From Armatimonadota bacterium (GTDB lineage: Bacteria > Armatimonadota > Fimbriimonadia > Fimbriimonadales > GBS-DC), in assembly GCA_037445735.1 (NCBI GenBank), contig JBBIJY010000024.1, positions 1 through 37,560 on the forward strand: a DNA stretch of 37,560 nucleotides, given 5' to 3'. The notes under the pieces are model-generated. The model was not told where the DNA came from. It saw only the letters and a program-made list of their open reading frames with translations, and ran no database searches. Position numbers and translations under genes: made by a program. Within the stretch, counting starts at the first letter, position 1. Each line of letters starts with the position of its first letter. Positions 29,839-37,560 of the stretch are shown piece by piece.

Positions 29839-31064
29839 GCCCAGCCCGATTGACGATACTGCTGCCACACGCGGCGGTAGACCTCGCGCGTCTGGCGGGC
29901 GATTCGCGCCCAGTTGAACGCGCGTTGCACCACGCGCTGCGCCCGTGCCGCGCGCTGCTGCGCCCCGCGCGGGTCCTGCAACACGCGCAGGATGCCCCAT
30001 GCCAAGCTCTCGGCGTTGCCCGCCCAGGTGATGATCCCCGTGCGCTCGTGCTGAACCACCTCTCTCAGCCCGCCCGTGTCGGACACCACCACAGGCACGC
30101 CCGCCGCCATCGCCTCCAGCGCCACAATCCCGAACGGCTCGTACAAGCTGGGATAGACCGCCACATCCACCACCCGATAGAGACGCAGTAAATCTTCATC
30201 GGGGATAAAACCTGTGAAGTGGACGCTCGGCTCCATGCGCAGGAATCGCACGAACGCCTCCAGATGCGCGCGCGACCCACCGCCTGCAATCACCAGCTTC
30301 GCCTCTGGCACATACGCCTTCACCTGCGGGAACGCCTGCAGCAGCACCTGCACGCCCTTCTCGCGTACCATGCGCCCCACAAAAAAGATAATCGGCTGAT
30401 TCGGTTCGGCGAACCGCGCGCGAAACGCGGCACGCTCCGATTCGGGGAACTCGAACGCGAACTTCTCGGCGCGAATGCCGTTGGGGATTACATCGAGTTT
30501 ATCGGCAGGCACGCTCAATACGCGCTGAACCTCCTCCCGCATGAAGTGGCTGCACACGATCACGCGCCACGCCTCATAGCAGAGCTGCCACTCGTGGTGG
30601 CTGATGGTACGCGATAGCTCGCTGTGGAGTCCGCCGTGCCGCCCATGCTCGGTGGCGTGGATGGTGGCAATCAGTGGCAGTTTGAACTGGTGTTTGAGTG
30701 CGCGGGCAGCGGGTTCCACCAGCCAGTCGTGCGCGTGGATAAGCATGGGTTGTCGGGCGCGTCGCCGTGTCGAACCGCGCCACTCGCGCAGCAGTTGCTC
30801 GCCCCGCGCTGCCATCGCCGCGTTCAGCGCATAGACCCATCCCAGAAAGTCGCTCCCTGCCATCGGCGGCGCATCCACCCGATGCAGATGCACGCCGTTT
30901 TCCACCGATTCAGTTGGCGCGTCGGGATGACCTGCGGTAATGACATGCACCGCCACGCCCAGACCCGTCAGTGCCTCCGACAGCTCCTGCACATGGCGGG
31001 CAATCCCACCCACAATACGCGGCGGATATTCCCATGAAAGCATCAGGATATTCATGGCGATCAT
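29835..31064 (-). CDS. Glycosyltransferase family 4 protein
   Basis: LSWEYPP..VGG, HAHDW, TIHATE.GR, VGR...EKG, PSLYEPFGIVALEAMA. Confidence 0.93.
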   Translation of the reverse strand: MIAMNILMLSWEYPPRIVGGIARHVQELSEALTGLGVAVHVITAGHPDAPTESVENGVHLHRVDAPPMAGSDFLGWVYALNAAMAARGEQLLREWRGSTRRRARQPMLIHAHDWLVEPAARALKHQFKLPLIATIHATEHGRHGGLHSELSRTISHHEWQLCYEAWRVIVCSHFMREEVQRVLSVPADKLDVIPNGIRAEKFAFEFPESERAAFRARFAEPNQPIIFFVGRMVREKGVQVLLQAFPQVKAYVPEAKLVIAGGGSRAHLEAFVRFLRMEPSVHFTGFIPDEDLLRLYRVVDVAVYPSLYEPFGIVALEAMAAGVPVVVSDTGGLREVVQHERTGIITWAGNAESLAWGILRVLQDPRGAQQRAARAQRVVQRAFNWARIARQTREVYRRVWQQYRQSGWA

Positions 31065-31411
31065 TCGGCAAAACGAATCCGAACTCTATCTGGCTCTACC
31101 ATAATCAAGGCAGCTTGCGCCAGCTCCGACTGATATGCTTTCAGGATATGACTGCAAACATGCCCCTGCTCCTGCGCACGAAATCCAACAAGCCGTACGA
31201 TGCCGCAGTGGGGACGCCGATGGACTATAGCCCACTCACCGAAGTCCTTATCCAGCGTTATAAGCACCCGCTTTTCACGGAAGGCATACTCCAGAATGGT
31301 TTCATCACCTGGATCGGTATCCCAGTCGCCCACCCACACCACATCATAACCTTCACGCTGAAGAAACGCTTTTGCACCACCCCAGACACAGGTATCAAGT
31401 AGCACCTTCAT
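31061..31411 (-). CDS. DUF5615 family PIN-like protein (putative toxin)
   Basis: MKVLLD.CV, DP.D..IL..A..E.RVLIT.DKDFG, R.R at the C-terminus. Confidence 0.85.
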   Translation of the reverse strand: MKVLLDTCVWGGAKAFLQREGYDVVWVGDWDTDPGDETILEYAFREKRVLITLDKDFGEWAIVHRRPHCGIVRLVGFRAQEQGHVCSHILKAYQSELAQAALIMVEPDRVRIRFAE

Positions 31412-31673
31412 CGGTTAACTCCAGTTGCAGGGGTTCAACTCGTTCACGCCCGACAAGGCGGCGTGCATAGACCAGGCAGGCGCGAATATCATCGGGTTCC
31501 AGCCACGGATAGCCCTGCAGAATGATTTCGGGCGTATCACCTGCTGCCAGCATCTGCAGCACATGCTCCACTGCCAGTCGCCGTCCCCGAATGATCGGCT
31601 TGCCCCCAAAAATCGCCGGGTTGGTGGTGATGCGTTTCAGGAGCTGCTCCTCGTCGACGCGCGTGATTGCCAT
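31395..31673 (-). CDS. DUF433 protein (putative antitoxin)
   Basis: RI..NP.I.GGKP.IRG.R..VE.VL..LA.G....IL..YP.L...DI.A.L.YA. SD GGAGG 8 nt before ATG 31673. Confidence 0.88.
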   Translation of the reverse strand: MAITRVDEEQLLKRITTNPAIFGGKPIIRGRRLAVEHVLQMLAAGDTPEIILQGYPWLEPDDIRACLVYARRLVGRERVEPLQLELTDEGAT

Positions 31674-31723
31674 CTCCATCGCCTCCGAATCAAGGATACC
31701 CCAATCCGATAGGGCGAGCAGGG

Positions 31724-32686
31724 TCATATCGCCATCATTGTTGCGATTTCCAGCTTGCGGGCGTCGACGGTTCGGGTCGCCATCAGCACATAGTCGATGG
31801 GCACGGTGATGAGGCGTCCGCCCTCGATGCCGACCATCTCGTCGGTGTTGCCCTGCAGCAGGCGCTCGACAGCAAGCACGCCGAACTGGGTCGCCAGCAC
31901 CCTGTCGAACGCCGTGGGCGAGCCGCCCCGCTGCATGTGCCCCAGCACCAGCGCACGGATATGGTAGGGCGTGTGGCTCTCCAGAAACTTCTGCACATCG
32001 GTGGCTCGCACCGCGCCCTCCGCCACCACGATAATGCTGGAGTGCTTGCCGCGCTGATAGCTCTCATCCAGACGCCGAAGCAGGTCTGCCAGATTGTAGG
32101 GCACTTCGGGGATCAGAATCGCCTCCGCGCCGCCTGCCAGCCCCACCTCCAGCGCGATGAAGCCATTATGCCGACCCATCACCTCAATCACGAACACGCG
32201 CTCGTGCGAATAGGCAGTGTCGCGAATCTTGTCGATCGCCTCCAGCGCGGTGTTGACCGCCGTGTCGAAGCCGATGCTGTAGTCGGTGCCGGGGATGTCG
32301 TTATCGATGGTGGCGGGGATACCGATAACCCGGATGTCGGTATGCTGGCGGAGGGCGACCGCGCCGCGAATGGAGCCGTCGCCGCCAATCACCACCAGCC
32401 CGTCGATGCCGTGCTGGGACAATATCTCAGCGGCGCGTTGCAGACCCGCTTCAGTGCGGAACTCTTCACTGCGGGCGGTGCGCAGAATCGTGCCACCCCG
32501 ATTGATGATGCCGCCGACCGACACGCTGCTCATCGGCTCAATCTCGCCTGCGAGCAGCCCTGCATAGCCGCGCCGAATGCCGTACACCTCCAGCCCGTGA
32601 AAGAGCGCGGCGCGCACCACCGCGCGAATGGCGGCGTTCATGCCCGGCGCGTCGCCCCCGCTGGTCAGCACCCCGATGCGTTTCAT
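31724..32686 (-). CDS. pfkA: ATP-dependent 6-phosphofructokinase
   Basis: LTSGGDAPGMNAAIR, GGTIL..AR, IGGDGS, PATIDND, EVMGR, LGH.QRGG.P...DR. Confidence 0.97.
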   Translation of the reverse strand: MKRIGVLTSGGDAPGMNAAIRAVVRAALFHGLEVYGIRRGYAGLLAGEIEPMSSVSVGGIINRGGTILRTARSEEFRTEAGLQRAAEILSQHGIDGLVVIGGDGSIRGAVALRQHTDIRVIGIPATIDNDIPGTDYSIGFDTAVNTALEAIDKIRDTAYSHERVFVIEVMGRHNGFIALEVGLAGGAEAILIPEVPYNLADLLRRLDESYQRGKHSSIIVVAEGAVRATDVQKFLESHTPYHIRALVLGHMQRGGSPTAFDRVLATQFGVLAVERLLQGNTDEMVGIEGGRLITVPIDYVLMATRTVDARKLEIATMMAI

Positions 32687-32703: not shown

Positions 32704-33480
32704 CTACTCGCGGATAGCGAAGTTCGGCTTGCGCTTCTCCAGAAAGGCACGAATGCCCTCCTGACCTTCGGGGCTGACCCGCAGCTCGGCGAGGCGAGCC
32801 ACAGTCAGCGAGCGCAGCTCATCGATGGGTAGGGTCTGCGTGGCGTTCAATAGCATTTTAGCGGACGCCATCGCCTGCGGACCGTTCTGCAGCAAGCCGC
32901 GGATGAACTGCTGCACCGCATCGTCCAGCTGCTCGGCGGGCGCTATGCGGTGAACCAGCCCGATGCGTAGGGCGGTCTCGGCGTCGAACCGCTCGCCCGT
33001 GAGGAACAGAGCGCGCGCGTGCCCGTAGCCGATTTTGCGCACCACATAGGGCGCGATCACGGCGGGGATCAGCCCCAGCTTCACCTCGCTGAAGGCGAAC
33101 CGCGCCTCCGGCGAGGCAATCGCAATATCACACACGGCGACCAGCCCCACGCCGCCGCCCATCGCCGCGCCGTGAACCCGCGCGATCACCGGCTTCGGGC
33201 AGTGGTCGATCACCTCGAACATGCGCGCCAGCGCCCGTGCATCGTCCAGATTCTGCGCATAGGTGTAGTTCGCGATGGCGCCCATCCAGTGGAGGTCGGC
33301 GCCTGCGCAAAACGACGCGCCCTCCGCCCGCAGCACCACCACGCGCACATCGTCCCGCTCGCGCACCTGCTCAAAGGTCTCGGTCAGGCGAGCGATCAGC
33401 TCCGCGTTGAAGGCGTTATGCACTTCGGGGCGGTTCAGCACCACCTGCGCCACCCAGTCGGCTATCTTCAGCTCCAGCAT
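32704..33480 (-). CDS. Enoyl-CoA hydratase/isomerase (methylglutaconyl-CoA hydratase-like)
   Basis: LNRPEVHNAF, FCAGADL, GAAMGGGVGL, SEVKLGLIP, EGQEG..AFLEKRKP. Start at ATG 33480. Confidence 0.92.
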   Translation of the reverse strand: MLELKIADWVAQVVLNRPEVHNAFNAELIARLTETFEQVRERDDVRVVVLRAEGASFCAGADLHWMGAIANYTYAQNLDDARALARMFEVIDHCPKPVIARVHGAAMGGGVGLVAVCDIAIASPEARFAFSEVKLGLIPAVIAPYVVRKIGYGHARALFLTGERFDAETALRIGLVHRIAPAEQLDDAVQQFIRGLLQNGPQAMASAKMLLNATQTLPIDELRSLTVARLAELRVSPEGQEGIRAFLEKRKPNFAIRE

Positions 33481-33492
33481 GCCAGCCGCCAG

Positions 33493-33519
33493 ATTCTCCC
33501 CGATCAGGCGGCTTCCTGC
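33493..33519 (-). promoter_or_regulatory. Putative SigH-like promoter of the enoyl-CoA hydratase-pfkA operon
   Basis: Minus strand GCAGGAAG...GAGAAT (GCAGG-N18-GAAT), 12 nt before ATG 33480, no SD. Confidence 0.55.
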
Positions 33520-33740
33520 AGCGCACTGCACCCAACAGGTACTGCATAATCACCGCTCGCCAGAACCTTTTCTTGTCCATCAGAACCGGAGCCACAAACC
33601 TCCTGACTGACAAAGTCGCTTGTGTAATTCACACTGGTGTCCATAGGAACGGATTTAGCTGTCAAAGATGACTGGCTCGTCGTTTCGGTTATTTACTCAT
33701 TTTCATTGATTATCGCTTAGCTGCTGGCGAAGGCTAATCA

Positions 33741-34670
33741 TCAGCGTTTTTCTGATTGCTCAGCAAAAGTGTAAATCTTTTTAATTACTGTTTTGCCTGT
33801 TATATAATATGAAACTGATAATATTATTGAATATATAATTGCATATAAAACGATTTTGTATACGAAATAATTAATCAATATTGATAAAATAAACAGTGCT
33901 GAAGTTACTAAGAGAATGACAGTATTATCCGGTTTGCCTTTTCGCAATCGTAGCGCAACCTCACTATTTCCTGCAAGTCCTGCAATCGGTAATAGCACGC
34001 CTATGAAAATGTAATTCATAATGGCTACTGCGATCCATAGCTCCAATGGAGCAGCCATCTCTAACAGCTTGGTTGCTATCGCAAGAAAGATAATCAACAC
34101 CCACAAGACGAAACTGACCAGTGGCTTATAGAAAGGATTTTGACAAACATGGACAATCCGGTCATCGTGGTCCATCTGAGTCTCGGAGGATAAGCGTATC
34201 TGATTTTTTCGCATACATAAAGAAGTATCTAAATAAAAATTTTTCCAATTAATTTTGTAGTAAAGTATATCGACTATGTGGAAAATCAAAGAACCAAAAT
34301 ACAACGATAAGAAATGAAATGATATAAAATAATAATATAATAGAAAATAGATAATTAAGTATTCAAAAGATAGATGTAATAACATGTACAATATATCAAT
34401 ACTATTTTTATCTTTGGTTATCAAACTTCGACATGGAAAATAAAACGCCCATGCGCAAGCAAATTGAAAACCACAAATGAGATAAAAAAGAGTTTCAAAT
34501 AGCACATTTTGAATTGGGAAAAAGAATAATTCATATGTTATAAAAGAAAAATATAAAAATAACATGGATAAACCTATAGTCCGAGAATGCCCCCAAGCAG
34601 GGACAACCCTTATCTGTCGTCCCCCAAGCAAAATCCATTCTGGAGGCCAAAATTGCAACTTGTTCATCAT
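33741..34670 (-). CDS. AT-rich multi-pass membrane protein, candidate immunity protein for the upstream Cys-rich tip
   Basis: ATG 34670 overlaps the upstream TGA (ATGA). About 8 hydrophobic segments. Markedly AT-rich relative to the rest of the window. Confidence 0.7.
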   Translation of the reverse strand: MMNKLQFWPPEWILLGGRQIRVVPAWGHSRTIGLSMLFLYFSFITYELFFFPIQNVLFETLFYLICGFQFACAWAFYFPCRSLITKDKNSIDILYMLLHLSFEYLIIYFLLYYYFISFHFLSLYFGSLIFHIVDILYYKINWKNFYLDTSLCMRKNQIRLSSETQMDHDDRIVHVCQNPFYKPLVSFVLWVLIIFLAIATKLLEMAAPLELWIAVAIMNYIFIGVLLPIAGLAGNSEVALRLRKGKPDNTVILLVTSALFILSILINYFVYKIVLYAIIYSIILSVSYYITGKTVIKKIYTFAEQSEKR

Positions 34671-35260
34671 CGAATAGGCATAGGAGGTCCAATCGGCGGG
34701 ATAAATAGCGGGTCGCACTGGTAGCAACCAAGAATGCATCCAGCTATCACAGGCACCCACATAGTGATGCAGGGAATCACACATGCAGCGATAATAGGTA
34801 AGCAATGCCTTCCCGCTTGGCTCAAACATCGTATACAAACAGGGTTGACAATTCCTAATGTTGCACAAACCAATAAACAACCAAGGGCTACTAGACATTT
34901 CAGAATGCCACTTAAACCTGCGCATCTGAATATACACGAAGCGATACCCGCCAAGCCCCATGTGATACATCTGGTAATACACTCAGGATTCCAGCCACAA
35001 CCGGGAGGAGGATAATGAATATACCTTTTTGGAAAGTCAGAAACGCCACATTCGTTATCTTCTAATGCTGAACAGACCATGGTCCTTTGTGGCTGAAAAA
35101 GGCAGGCACAAGGTGTAGGTTGCTCACTCTGCACCGCCAGCCCGTTGCTATCCTGCGGATAATAACCCCACGGATCACCTGATGAACCCATCATCAGTAA
35201 AGTACCCCCACTGTGTGCAAACCGCCAGTTCTCATTATACCCCAGCGCGTTTCCTGTGGG
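34667..35260 (-). CDS. Orphan RHS C-terminal module with a 20-Cys hydrophobic tip (frame open from 35260; first ATG at 35194)
   Basis: 175-aa ORF plus 22 open upstream codons. YPQDSNGLAV parallels LYQDWFGVRV in the upstream RHS. Repeated CxxxC motifs. Confidence 0.65.
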   Translation of the reverse strand, partial: PTGNALGYNENWRFAHSGGTLLMMGSSGDPWGYYPQDSNGLAVQSEQPTPCACLFQPQRTMVCSALEDNECGVSDFPKRYIHYPPPGCGWNPECITRCITWGLAGIASCIFRCAGLSGILKCLVALGCLLVCATLGIVNPVCIRCLSQAGRHCLPIIAACVIPCITMWVPVIAGCILGCYQCDPLFIPPIGPPMPIR

Positions 35261-35268
35261 TCAGTGTT

Positions 35269-35865
35269 TCACTTCCCGCCTTTTGGAGGCGTAAACAGCG
35301 ATGCGGCCACGCGCTGAACTGTCGGCTCTAGTATCTCAAACATCCAGCAGAAGCCCTTCGCCTGATCCTCGAACACTACTTGCCACTTTATCAGCACCAG
35401 ACCACCCTCCAGATTCACCCAGCGCCGATATTCGCGATAGTTCGATCCGCGCCACTCCTGCCACTGAGCCTGTAGATTACCGACCCGTTCCTTCCCCTGA
35501 CGGCTTTGCACCCTGGGCACGGCAAGACCAAGTGCTCTCAACAAAGGCTGTTCTGGTAACGCCCGCGGGAAGGTCTCCTCCTCTTCTTCAGCACGCACGC
35601 GCCCCGTTCGAGGGTCAATCTCGTACTGTTTGCCACCAACATACAAGAAGATGCTATCGCCCGACTCGATGCGCGCGTGCTGGGGTGTAAGCCAGTACTG
35701 CCCAAACTGAGATTCTGGCGCCGGAAGAGAAGACTGTCCCTTGGTCGAGGCTCCGAAAAGATAGCCCCATCCTGTAATCGTCATTAGTTCATCGCCCGAC
35801 GCGTGTTCTACAGGAATATTCTGCGCTCGCTGCAGCCAACGCCAAAGTGCTATGGTTCTCATCAT
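35269..35865 (-). CDS. Hypothetical protein coupled to the RHS gene (candidate immunity/partner; possibly LolA-like beta fold)
   Basis: ATGA overlap with the RHS stop and SD AGGAGG. Beta-strand-rich pattern ending in SLFTPP. Confidence 0.65.
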   Translation of the reverse strand: MMRTIALWRWLQRAQNIPVEHASGDELMTITGWGYLFGASTKGQSSLPAPESQFGQYWLTPQHARIESGDSIFLYVGGKQYEIDPRTGRVRAEEEEETFPRALPEQPLLRALGLAVPRVQSRQGKERVGNLQAQWQEWRGSNYREYRRWVNLEGGLVLIKWQVVFEDQAKGFCWMFEILEPTVQRVAASLFTPPKGGK

Positions 35866-37560
35866 TGCCCTCCTGAAATTTTAGGTGTCTCTGTACCTTT
35901 GGCACAGTCAGGCGGAAGAGTTATTTTCACCCCGCCAGGGCATTCTACGGTTGCGCCAGGTGGAGCACAAGCAGGTGGCTGACCCGGACAAACGAACATG
36001 CAAAGACCTTCAGGACACTTGAATGGCTCCGGTGATGGGTTGGGGGAAGGCGTGGGTTGTGGCGAGGGAGCCGGCTCTGGCTTAGGCTTCTGAGGCGGGG
36101 TGGGGTCAAAAAAGCGTGCACACAACCATTCGCAAAAACCACGAGGACGAAGGAAAGGAGGTAACCATCGCTTGCATTTTCTAACACAGTCTTGGTAATC
36201 CCGCGGTATAAGATCGCCAAGTTTTTTCAGGAGGTCGTCCAAGTCATCGGACGAAAGATACTCCGGCACACGCTTGGGCACACCTGCCGTCTCAAACTCC
36301 CCGCCGACCCGCACGCCGAACCAGTCCTGATACAGCATCGCTCCTGCAGGCGGCGGTGTCAGCCCACTCAGCCAGTGCCCTGCTAACCACCCATAGTCCT
36401 GGGCACTCTCAGCACCTGCACCATACCACACACTGCTCAACCCTGCCATATACTCCTCCAGCGTCTCCCACCTCTCGCTCCCTATCGCCCGATTATACAC
36501 CCGCATCGGCACGCCCCCACACCCTATCCGACACACATACCGATACTCCTGCTGAGCCAGACCATCCCGCTTCCAGACCCGAACACCATCACTATTGTAC
36601 CCGTACTCATACACGACCTGCGTGCTGTTGCCGTAATCCCGCTCTATCCGCGTCAAACGACCCTCCTCATCATACCCGAACACCCGCGTATAACTGTTCG
36701 GCTGATTAGTGCTCCACCGCGCCAGCGTCCCTTCAGGGTTCCACACAAAACTATGCTCCTCGCCACTCCACACATCCAGCACGCTCGCCAACCGACCCGA
36801 CGCCGCGTCATAACTGTACACATCCTAGTGCGTCCCGTTCACCACATCGTCCCACATCACCATCGCCCGACTGCCATCGGGATTGTAGTCATAACTCCGA
36901 TGGTACGCCACCTGACCCGTGCGCACCTCGCTCCCTAACCGACCCGCAGGCGTGTAGCTGTAAACCGTCGTGTCCCCACTCGGACGCTCCACGCTCTGCT
37001 CCACCCGACCCAGCAGGTCATAAGTGTACTCGTACCCGATCAACAAACTCCCATCCCCCCGCTTGTGTTCCACCTTCCACACATGCCCCACCTGCGACGG
37101 ATTGTCCGCGCCATAGTAAGTATACGCCACAAAACTCCCGTTCGGGTAATCCTCTCGCTGCAGCCGCCCCGTGCCCCGCTCATAACTGTACACCACACTG
37201 CCCCGATAATCGCCCACGCTTTGCAGCCGTCCCAGCGCATCATAGGTGTACTCAATCGTGCGCACGACACTCTCGTCCGACCGACGCTCCTTCTCAAACC
37301 GCTTCCTGCCCGCCGCGTCGTACTCCGCCGACACCACCTGCACCTCTATGCCCAACTCGCTCCCACAGCATCCCTGCTGGCGCAACACCCGACCCCACGC
37401 ATCGTAGGTATACTCCCGACGCCCAGCGCCGTCCACAACCCATACCCGACGGTTCTCACCGTCCCAGCCCATACTTACATCGGCACTGCACGGATAGTCT
37501 ATCCTCCGCAACCGACCCCACGCGTCATAAATATAGGTCGTCACCTCGCTCCCGCTCGCC
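35862..37560 (-). pseudogene. RHS/YD-repeat protein, 3' part, interrupted by a single in-frame TAG; continues beyond the window end
   Basis: Many Y.YD..GR repeats. ORFs 36825-37544 and 35862-36821 share a frame and are separated by CAC-TAG-GAT-GTG (TAG at 36827-36825). The frame stays open to the window edge. Confidence 0.8.

Follow-up and report, generated by a model that had tools for sequence, protein, structure and literature searches.

Genes and features of the locus

The window analysed here is the whole of contig C24 (JBBIJY010000024.1, 37,560 bp) of a 2.78-Mb Armatimonadota genome in 59 contigs (assembly GCA_037445735.1), which has a GC content of about 62% and is an estimated 99.2% complete. 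On its minus strand, we studied an open reading frame (ORF) for a 175-residue protein with 20 cysteines, followed by a gene for a 309-residue protein (33741-34670) with several transmembrane (TM)-like segments (Table 1). Because the first resembles the C-terminal tips of rearrangement hotspot (RHS) proteins, we call it the tip, and we call the second its partner. The tip frame is open from stop to stop, from position 35260 down to 34670. An alternative overlapping frame of 413 residues (33741-34982) was rejected as an artefact: homology, cysteine conservation and an excess of synonymous (pS) over nonsynonymous (pN) differences all track the tip frame.

Table 1. Features of the tip, its partner gene and the RHS genes next to them
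Feature	Positions	Strand	Remarks
Tip ORF	34667..35194	-	175 aa from the first ATG (35194), 20 Cys; stop 34667-34669
Core-end motif, residues 1-19	35138..35194	-	holds the invariant YYPxDSNG(L/V)
Linker, residues 20-65	35000..35137	-	4 Cys (29, 31, 41, 49)
Hairpin arm 1, residues 70-113	34856..34987	-	predicted helix; Cys 72, 76, 87, 91, 100, 106, 110
Hairpin turn, residues 114-117	34844..34855	-	invariant N117-P118 spans the start of arm 2
Hairpin arm 2, residues 118-155	34730..34843	-	predicted helix; Cys 120, 123, 131, 138, 142, 153; then C157, C160
C-terminal tail, residues 161-175	34670..34714	-	Pro-rich; low model confidence (pLDDT); longer in other subtype-A members
Partner N-domain, residues 1-145 of 309 aa	34236..34670	-	proposed cognate immunity determinant; ATG overlaps the tip stop (ATGA)
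Partner C-domain, residues 146-309 + stop	33741..34235	-	further TM-like segments; long form only (window, L005)
In-frame extension 5' of the tip ATG	35195..35260	-	22 codons, no start codon; RHS-core remnant
198-aa ORF	35269..35865	-	separates the upstream RHS tip from the orphan; judged by position, presumably the immunity gene of the former
Upstream RHS gene	35862..37559	-	YD repeats (PF05593, 3.1e-15); own, different Cys-rich tip; runs off the contig

The cysteines of the tip are conserved and form a mirror pattern

The 20 cysteines stand at residues 29, 31, 41, 49, 66, 72, 76, 87, 91, 100, 106, 110, 120, 123, 131, 138, 142, 153, 157 and 160. By script count, the 16 that make up the core (residues 66-160) are separated by gaps of 5,3,10,3,8,5,3,[9],2,7,6,3,10,3,2 residues, and this count reproduced exactly the cysteine number and gap list of a preliminary description made from the sequence alone. 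The 3-10-3 blocks on both arms, the two spans of 14 residues and the central loop that had been noticed there were also found, with the loop at residues 111-119. The CX3C motifs (72/76, 87/91, 106/110, 138/142 and 153/157) are set as mirror pairs, and the position sums i+j of the eight mirror pairs are 226, 229, 229, 229, 229, 231, 229 and 230. We expressed the departure from symmetry as the sum of the absolute differences between each gap and its mirror gap, which amounts to 8 for the tip. An asymmetry of 8 or less occurred in 0.49% of 200,000 permutations of the tip's own 15 gaps; when the 14 interior cysteines were instead placed at random, 200,000 times, it occurred in 0.026%. The mirror pattern of the tip is thus unlikely to be due to chance.

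A scan of metagenome contigs yielded eight loci with relatives of the tip (L001-L008). Together with the window, L001-L005 form subtype A (52-68% identity), while L006-L008 and the protein P0007 form subtype B (about 40% identity). In an alignment of four sequences the 16 core cysteines were invariant down to 39% identity, and in one of eight rows 14 of the 16 columns were invariant, each of the other two holding cysteine in seven of the eight sequences. Subtype B has gaps of 5,3,10,3,8,6,3,[11],2,7,5,3,10,3,2 and likewise an asymmetry of 8, but its sums near the loop are shifted, so that the mirror pattern is not kept strictly. For the tip, pN was far below pS in all 21 pairs compared, and the ratio of nonsynonymous to synonymous substitution rates (dN/dS) was 0.14-0.36 in the seven pairs for which it could be estimated. 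For the partner, pN was likewise far below pS, and dN/dS was 0.16-0.36 for its N-domain. Judged by these comparisons, both genes are under purifying selection.

The tip is rare. A phmmer search of 1.84 billion cluster representatives returned two relatives, and a word-based search among proteins of similar length gave four matches with the N-terminal block alone in common. Scanning genome contigs with the tip alignment, we obtained 20 stretches that matched the pattern and no relative among them. When 401 genomes sampled from the phylum were scanned, matches extended into the tip part of the model in the window's own genome only, and 27 other genomes matched the RHS-core or linker part. Among the assembled contigs of the study's sequencing runs, positions 33600-35081 were covered in the likely source run only.

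A separate observation concerns the kind of changes seen in this family. Four independent in-frame stops (window 36825-36827, the tip of L004, the partner gene of L002/L003, and L015) all fall where relatives have tryptophan, and all change TGG to TAG; the replacements of cysteine by tyrosine in L001 and L008 are G-to-A changes as well (TGT to TAC or TAT). Recurrent inactivation of cassettes, a mutational bias or assembly noise are possible reasons. At position 36826 other contigs of the likely source run (X1) read a tryptophan codon, with a depth that includes paralogues. The use of TAG as a sense codon was rejected, as the 44 tRNAs identified in this genome include no suppressor.

An orphan RHS cassette

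The preliminary description had read the ORF as an orphan RHS tip, and three sets of observations bear this out. First, the 22-codon remnant in front of the tip, whose homology to the RHS core starts directly after the frame-closing stop at 35261-35263, aligns both to the RHS core in P0005, a metagenomic protein of 309 residues, and to residues 961-1027 of an RHS frame of 1189 residues in L012. Second, relatives carry the tip fused in frame to such a core. In P0005 it lies behind a YD-repeat core and is 66% identical to the window over 189 residues, with the tip ungapped and all 20 cysteines kept; in L003 it follows about 430 residues of RHS core within a single open frame of 613 residues, which matches residues 571-1057 of the 1189-residue frame and PF05593 at 2.8e-18. 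Third, a second orphan in the same genome (C3:126962-127492) has its first 66 residues in common with the window's cassette, at 51% identity, and then continues into an unrelated cysteine-rich tip. At the nucleotide level, a block of 132 nt (window 35123-35254) is 91.7% identical to C3:126974-127105.

In three further runs of the same study, contigs connect the core, from about 36467-36494, straight to 35243-35251, and a contig of the likely source run shows a similar join, from 35251 to 36484. As their sequences read, these contigs represent RHS copies whose core leads directly into the block, with neither the intervening tip nor the 198-residue ORF; they part again near 35125-35150, at the beginning of the tips. 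The 198-residue ORF itself is free of strong hydrophobic (TM-like) segments. In the window, the cassette has no N-terminal delivery part or RHS shell and sits downstream of another pair of rhs tip and presumed immunity gene, and further orphan cassettes lie 3' of the partner gene in L001 and L005. We are thus almost certain that the tip is an orphan RHS cassette.

The orphan rhs modules of Salmonella have the same architecture: a toxin and immunity module without the Rhs delivery part lies 3' of a full rhs gene and retains homology to its core (PMC3967940, PMC7043789; what we say of cited papers refers to excerpts of their text). Such cassettes are reactivated by recombination with the main gene (PMC3967940). 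The window differs in its phylum, core-end motif and tip, and by analogy its cassette might be reactivated by recombination as well.

The residues in front of the linker hold the motif YYPxDSNG(L/V), whose columns are invariant in a nine-row alignment and which also occurs inside long RHS open frames. In RHS proteins the tip is demarcated by the canonical self-cleavage motif PxxxxDPxGL. The DPxGL motif is absent from the tip ORF, and YYPxDSNG(L/V) occupies the corresponding boundary, at which the tips begin to differ. From this position, YYPxDSNG(L/V) would be the counterpart of the canonical site, and the protein would presumably be cleaved there. Since the four-cysteine linker that follows precedes many unrelated tips, we take it to be a pre-toxin module; it is predicted to be disordered, with a predicted local distance difference test score (pLDDT) below 40.

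The tip is paired with a gene for a membrane protein

The partner gene, which is translationally coupled to the tip through the ATGA overlap, stands out by its composition (window 33550-34750). GC is 26-40% over the partner and 46-48% over the tip, where the genome as a whole has about 62%, and a lower GC over both genes was also seen in most related loci. Homologues of its N-domain (33-38% identity) directly follow the tip in all five subtype-A loci, L001-L005. The partner has a short form of about 140-150 residues in L001-L004 and a long, two-domain form in the window and L005. In the three subtype-B loci the tip is followed each time by a different ORF with several TM segments.

We then considered the predicted complex of the tip with partner residues 1-145. 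ESMFold2 gave it a score of 0.66, as compared with 0.00 for the best of three controls; these controls were unrelated natural proteins, not known membrane proteins, and generic packing of TM helices may inflate the score. Of 80 solved complexes, 58 attained a mark of 0.66, as did 2 of 110 mismatched pairs; this calibration is rough, custom alignments having been used. Runs agreed in at least 91% of the contacts, the pLDDT of the partner was at least 74, and the predicted interface covers the proximal half of both hairpin arms.

Together, these data suggest that tip and partner are very probably a toxin-immunity pair. Lying directly downstream of the tip and co-varying with it, the partner has the place of a cognate immunity gene and would act as one. 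A word-based search with the partner N-domain returned none among 19 candidates, and in the ESM Atlas there was no usable match for the tip and unnamed clusters alone, at 0.83, for the partner. A scan of the region for promoters and terminators found no more than shuffled sequences give.

A predicted helical hairpin with the cysteines in register

With a four-row alignment, AlphaFold2 placed helices at tip residues 10-53 and 58-95 and paired residues 6-8 with 98-100 in a beta-bridge (model numbering), with a mean pLDDT of 80.2, 80-93 per 10-residue block over the hairpin, and a predicted template modelling score (pTM) of 0.59. With an eight-row alignment of the whole post-motif protein, the same elements came back with a pLDDT of 86-93 across the hairpin, arm 1 being the helix 51-94 in the numbering of this second model. 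In ORF numbering, the short beta-bridge pairs residues 66-68 with 158-160 and brings C66 and C160 together. The same single antiparallel helical hairpin was present in the ESMFold2 complex, so that two AlphaFold2 runs and the complex agree in predicting the long hairpin that had first been proposed from the sequence.

The models also bear on the register of the two arms. In the ESMFold2 complex, partner residue 45 touches C76 and C153, and residue 37 touches C87 and C142. Since each of these residues bridges a pair of mirror cysteines, the predicted register is the one that the mirror pattern demands. Furthermore, the cysteines line one helical face on each arm, at about 3.7-3.8 residues per turn. 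On arm 2 their phase coherence was R = 0.92 at 3.72 residues per turn (P = 0.0002), and on arm 1 R = 0.74 (P = 0.027), rising to 0.98 when C100 was left out. With this register and the cysteines on one face, the hairpin would therefore hold three stacked units of CX3C against CX3C (or CX2C), together with single rungs. Eight nested disulfides are consistent with the predicted register and the cysteine stripes, and on these models we lean slightly towards most of them being formed.

Membrane character and proposed mode of action

The tip is strongly hydrophobic. Kyte-Doolittle means over 19 residues reach 2.4 (residues 95-116) and 2.3 (residues 138-149), and stay at 2.0 or above when cysteine is set to 0. 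Within residues 72-158, all charged residues are K, R or H, except for one Asp in one of the eight sequences, and K/R99 and R/K129 are present in all eight. Taken with the membrane partner, this hydrophobicity and cationic charge suggest that the tip inserts into membranes, and a membrane is probably its target.

As to the envelope of the producer, a 382-residue frame (C20:22352-23356) matches VKOR (3.6e-17) and Thioredoxin_4 (6.3e-24), and the genome encodes two Omp85 proteins. The organism is therefore taken to be a diderm with disulfide oxidation in its envelope. We note that a fused VKOR/Thioredoxin_4 system fits a proteome with many cysteine-rich exported proteins.

The explanation that we prefer, by a modest degree of confidence, is a disulfide-laddered, membrane-attacking hairpin toxin encoded with its membrane immunity protein in an orphan RHS cassette. 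The cassette would comprise the last 40 or so residues of the RHS core with the motif, the four-cysteine linker, an effector of 95 residues and the Pro-rich tail. In an oxidising compartment, most or all of the 16 core cysteines would pair as nested disulfides between the helices, making a rigid, stapled hydrophobic rod. This rod would enter the cytoplasmic membrane of the target cell from the periplasmic side and kill by dissipating membrane integrity or potential, probably as an oligomer. It would thus act in the manner of Tse5 or of pore formers of the colicin type, with a structure that looks new. Within the membrane, the partner N-domain, which resembles a four-TM protein, would bind the proximal half of the hairpin and block its action. 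Lacking an RHS shell in this genome, the cassette would be a reserve module, able to recombine onto a complete RHS gene by way of the shared 132 nt, and the immunity gene would protect the producer against kin that deploy the tip.

Alternative explanations

Besides the possible inflation of the complex score, several observations weigh against the laddered-toxin interpretation. The alternative that fares best holds that the cysteines stay reduced, serving tight helix packing in the membrane, or bind metal ions, and that the tip is an ordinary two-helix membrane hairpin toxin. The ladder is deduced from register and phase and not from distances between sulphur atoms. C100 lies about 170 degrees off the stripe of the other six arm-1 cysteines, and the symmetry of subtype B is imperfect, three loop-proximal mirror sums being shifted by 2-3 and the indels not being compensated arm for arm. 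Two natural variants have tyrosine at one cysteine position (160 in L001, 131 in L008), and CX2C and CX3C spacings also occur in metal sites. The fold itself was modelled from shallow alignments (four and eight rows), and hydrophobic sequence is easily turned into a helical hairpin by predictors. Against reduced or metal-bound cysteines, the invariance of 14 of the 16 core columns persists to about 40% identity, far above that of neighbouring small residues, and the mirror register matches the predicted antiparallel hairpin. The sister tips behind the same motif are also uniformly rich in cysteine (18-20 in 12 of 14), they include sub-threshold matches resembling phospholipase A2 and scorpion toxins, both classic disulfide-rich secreted folds, and the envelope oxidation machinery is present. 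On balance, we regard this alternative as unlikely.

Less probable still is a stapled hairpin that blocks a specific target in the envelope, such as a membrane complex or a lipid-linked precursor, with an immunity protein that mimics or shields this target. The arms of 44 and 38 residues are about twice as long as a bilayer's hydrophobic core is thick, given the usual rise of a helix, so that a simple TM hairpin would have to be tilted, partly inserted or oligomeric in order to fit. The partner is predicted to bind the hairpin directly, and one pore-forming toxin of a type VI secretion system (T6SS) is reported to need a specific membrane complex of the target cell (PMC12718326). No enzymatic or binding domain was found beyond the hairpin, which argues the other way. 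So does the combination of extreme hydrophobicity and purely basic charge, which is generally typical of membrane-active peptides. Binding of the immunity protein within the membrane is also the rule for pore formers, as in the colicins, and membrane immunity proteins are described for further such toxins as well (PMC11630599, PMC9637101).

The least probable alternative, which we judge improbable, is that the cassette is a silent, decaying relic of which only the immunity gene, or neither gene, matters to the cell. The core remnant has no start codon upstream and no RHS shell, all copies with a visible 5' boundary (the window, L002, L003, L004, L005 and L008) are 5'-truncated, each to a different extent, and L001, L006, L007 and P0005 run off the ends of their contigs. 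When we looked for the tip fused to full-length RHS proteins, the in-frame fusion to a YD-repeat core was recovered, but no complete RHS gene bearing the tip was found among the loci and proteins at hand. The upstream RHS gene is broken by the in-frame TAG at 36825-36827, where its paralogues have TGG (contig C3) or an Arg codon (contig C4). Decaying copies exist in relatives, with a stop in the tip of L004, stops in the partner gene of L002 and L003, and the two changes of cysteine to tyrosine; moreover, tip and partner are covered in the probable source run alone. What speaks against a relic is that the copy in the window is intact, with all 20 cysteines and an intact coupled partner, that pN is far below pS family-wide in both genes, and that reactivation of orphan rhs cassettes through recombination has been described (PMC3967940).

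Delivery is a further difficulty for a laddered hairpin toxin. We found no T6SS sheath gene in this 99.2% complete genome, and the RHS proteins of the organism are therefore probably not T6SS cargo.

Comparison with known families and systems

Neither the tip ORF nor the 309-residue partner nor the 198-residue ORF had a family in Pfam (E up to 0.1), NCBIfam, PADLOC or PHROGs. For the tip, a profile of eight rows gave no match among PDB sequences at E up to 1, and Foldseek gave none against the PDB at E up to 0.001 (best E 1.8, ExbB). Over 48,161 chains, the best Z of VIA-align was 7.6, with a root-mean-square deviation (rmsd) of 6.2-11.9 Å over the best 50 rows; by this measure the matches are long hairpins of a generic kind, which do not rise above the noise stated for helical models. 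The earlier impression that the tip belongs to no described RHS toxin family thus held throughout these searches. In the literature, covered only in part for pore-forming effectors, we found no description of a cysteine-rich or disulfide-laddered RHS tip.

Several membrane-active classes were considered and set aside. Pore-forming colicins insert a hydrophobic helical hairpin, which inner-membrane immunity proteins with three to four TM helices recognise in the membrane; in the colicins this hairpin lies inside a soluble bundle of ten helices and is free of disulfides. A colicin-type pore-forming domain was rejected, with no Pfam match and, for colicin Ia, a Z of 7.4 and an rmsd of 10.8 Å, which is within the noise of long helices. 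Glycine-zipper membrane toxins were rejected too (no Pfam match; on visual inspection, Cys and Ala make up most of the small residues, and there are a few Gly), as was a phage holin or other phage membrane protein (no PHROG family for tip or partner at E up to 0.05). Helical hairpins with nested bridges (C1-C4, C2-C3) also occur in the twin-CX3C small Tim proteins, in glycocins and in sactipeptides, and several of them are membrane-active bacteriocins. These hairpins have two to four bridges and are small, soluble or post-translationally modified. To our knowledge none of them is an RHS tip, and the tip had no Pfam match to zf-Tim10_DDP.

A likeness to alpha-hairpinins had been suggested at the outset, and it stands as an analogy, through the nested CX3C mirror pairs, but not as membership. 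By definition, members of that family carry C1X3C2-Xn-C3X3C4 (n of 4-20) and 4-6 cysteines, with fewer than three extra cysteines outside the motif (PMC11591084), and the tip has 16 core cysteines, CX3C/CX3C shells 46 and 76 residues apart and an inner CX3C-X9-CX2C. Plant alpha-hairpinins share with the proposed form of the tip a helix-loop-helix with nested disulfides between CX3C motifs; they are short soluble peptides of 4-6 cysteines, whereas the tip has 16 and membrane-like helices (PMC11591084).

Among polymorphic toxins, two systems come closest in function. Tse5 (RhsP1) of P. aeruginosa is, like the tip, RHS-borne, without an enzymatic domain and predicted to have helical membrane-inserting segments; its C-terminal domain (CT) forms pores, and its immunity protein Tsi5, encoded beside it, is integral to the membrane, as we predict for the partner, and has two predicted TM regions (PMC9637101). 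Tse5 differs in being delivered by the T6SS, and cysteine is not mentioned in the paper, while the tip has a 16-cysteine core and a single very long hairpin (PMC9637101). The ionophore CTs from contact-dependent growth inhibition (CDI), that is the CdiA-CT EC93 family, are likewise C-terminal domains of polymorphic toxins behind a conserved demarcation motif; they dissipate the membrane potential and are matched by highly divergent, toxin-specific CdiI proteins integral to the membrane (PMC11630599). According to the same excerpts, they are predicted five-helix bundles carried on CdiA filaments behind VENN and have no cysteine ladder, in contrast to the two-helix hairpin of the tip (PMC11630599). 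Neither Tse5-CT nor the CDI ionophore CTs surfaced in our profile and fold searches, in which their sequences were not compared directly. As we read it, the tip belongs by function with membrane-targeting polymorphic toxins. For its proposed structure, a 16-cysteine laddered membrane hairpin, we met no precedent among RHS tips in the literature covered.

Polymorphic toxins, those of RHS type among them, have been known chiefly as nucleases, deaminases and ADP-ribosyltransferases, together with a few poorly resolved pore formers. If our interpretation is right, a cysteine-laddered, membrane-like helical hairpin as the whole effector would be a new solution to membrane attack and would show how an RHS shell can carry insoluble cargo. 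It would also be a compact and probably very stable scaffold from a little-studied phylum, and the two toxin subtypes with their two unrelated membrane immunity proteins would lend themselves to the study of protein recognition within membranes. Finally, disulfide-rich 'venom-like' modules would then be used for bacterial warfare in a diderm phylum without T6SS, where the delivery route is a testable question.

The wider RHS family and the surroundings of the cassette

Scanning genome contigs with the shared block, we found 23 loci. Fifteen are in metagenome-assembled genomes (MAGs) titled Armatimonadota, Armatimonadetes or Fimbriimonadales and six come from one MAG titled 'Bacterium'; of the remaining two, one is on a contig binned as an archaeon and the other is a weak, unrelated-looking Flavobacterium match. 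Leaving out the latter, the identity of the shared block is 50-80% in 22 loci, which suggests that the organism of the window is itself a member of the Armatimonadota. Twelve of the 14 tips of at least 100 residues behind the same motif carry 18-20 cysteines. Some of these sister tips have motifs that we take to resemble secreted phospholipase A2 or cysteine-stabilised alpha-beta toxins, with sub-threshold Pfam support (PF08398, E 0.021 for P0002; PF00537 Toxin_3, E 0.0044 for L013).

The region C3:124636-127860 holds a 5'-truncated RHS fragment of 552 residues with a cysteine-rich tip, an ORF of 232 residues, the orphan of 177 residues and an ORF of 128 residues. The tip of this orphan, to which L013 is related, has two tandem CX3C...CXC modules, which in our view recall cysteine-stabilised alpha-beta toxins. 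A motif of the type CCxxHDxCY, presumably that of secreted phospholipase A2, is present in the RHS tips of C4:122762-124672, L010, L027 and P0002, and the C4 copy is followed by an ORF of 329 residues and another orphan fragment. Tips L014, L015 and P0004 combine 18-20 cysteines with an HEMAH motif, possibly the mark of a zinc metalloprotease; P0004 had no family in Pfam.

Three other, unrelated tips (L018, L019 and L024) are also hydrophobic and rich in Gly and Cys. That of L024 reads CX3CX3C-X15-CX3CX3C, literally the six-cysteine alpha-hairpinin motif, within membrane-like sequence. Judging from these sequences, cysteine-braced hydrophobic helices may be a recurrent theme of this RHS family. 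L019 is a contig of 3,715 bp binned as a Desulfurococcaceae archaeon, where a bacterial RHS core-end block precedes a hydrophobic tip with 19 cysteines, and the contig is probably mis-binned.

A broader proposal, which we put forward only tentatively and hold to be rather doubtful as a whole, is that the RHS family of the Armatimonadota is a 'venom cabinet' whose interchangeable tips are almost all small disulfide-rich modules (phospholipase-A2-like, scorpion-toxin/defensin-like, alpha-hairpinin-like and metalloprotease-like) deployed without a T6SS. They would be convergent with, or related to, the cysteine-rich defence peptides of eukaryotes. As part of the same proposal, the tip of the window would found a new structural class of toxins, that is a cationic, hydrophobic hairpin of about 60 Å with up to eight nested disulfides, borne by an RHS shell and inserted into membranes as a pre-stapled rod.

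A more canonical RHS gene is found at C5:30871-33889, in a frame of 888 residues with YD repeats; the frame apparently shifts a little before a canonical-looking DPxG region, which could be a frameshift or an assembly error. In the window, the RHS array abuts housekeeping genes, with an enoyl-CoA hydratase at 32704-33531 and a phosphofructokinase at 31724-32686. Next to these, positions 31061-31727 hold overlapping small ORFs that match DUF5615 (1.8e-17) and DUF433 (1.4e-21), a pair that we take to be a toxin-antitoxin-like module.

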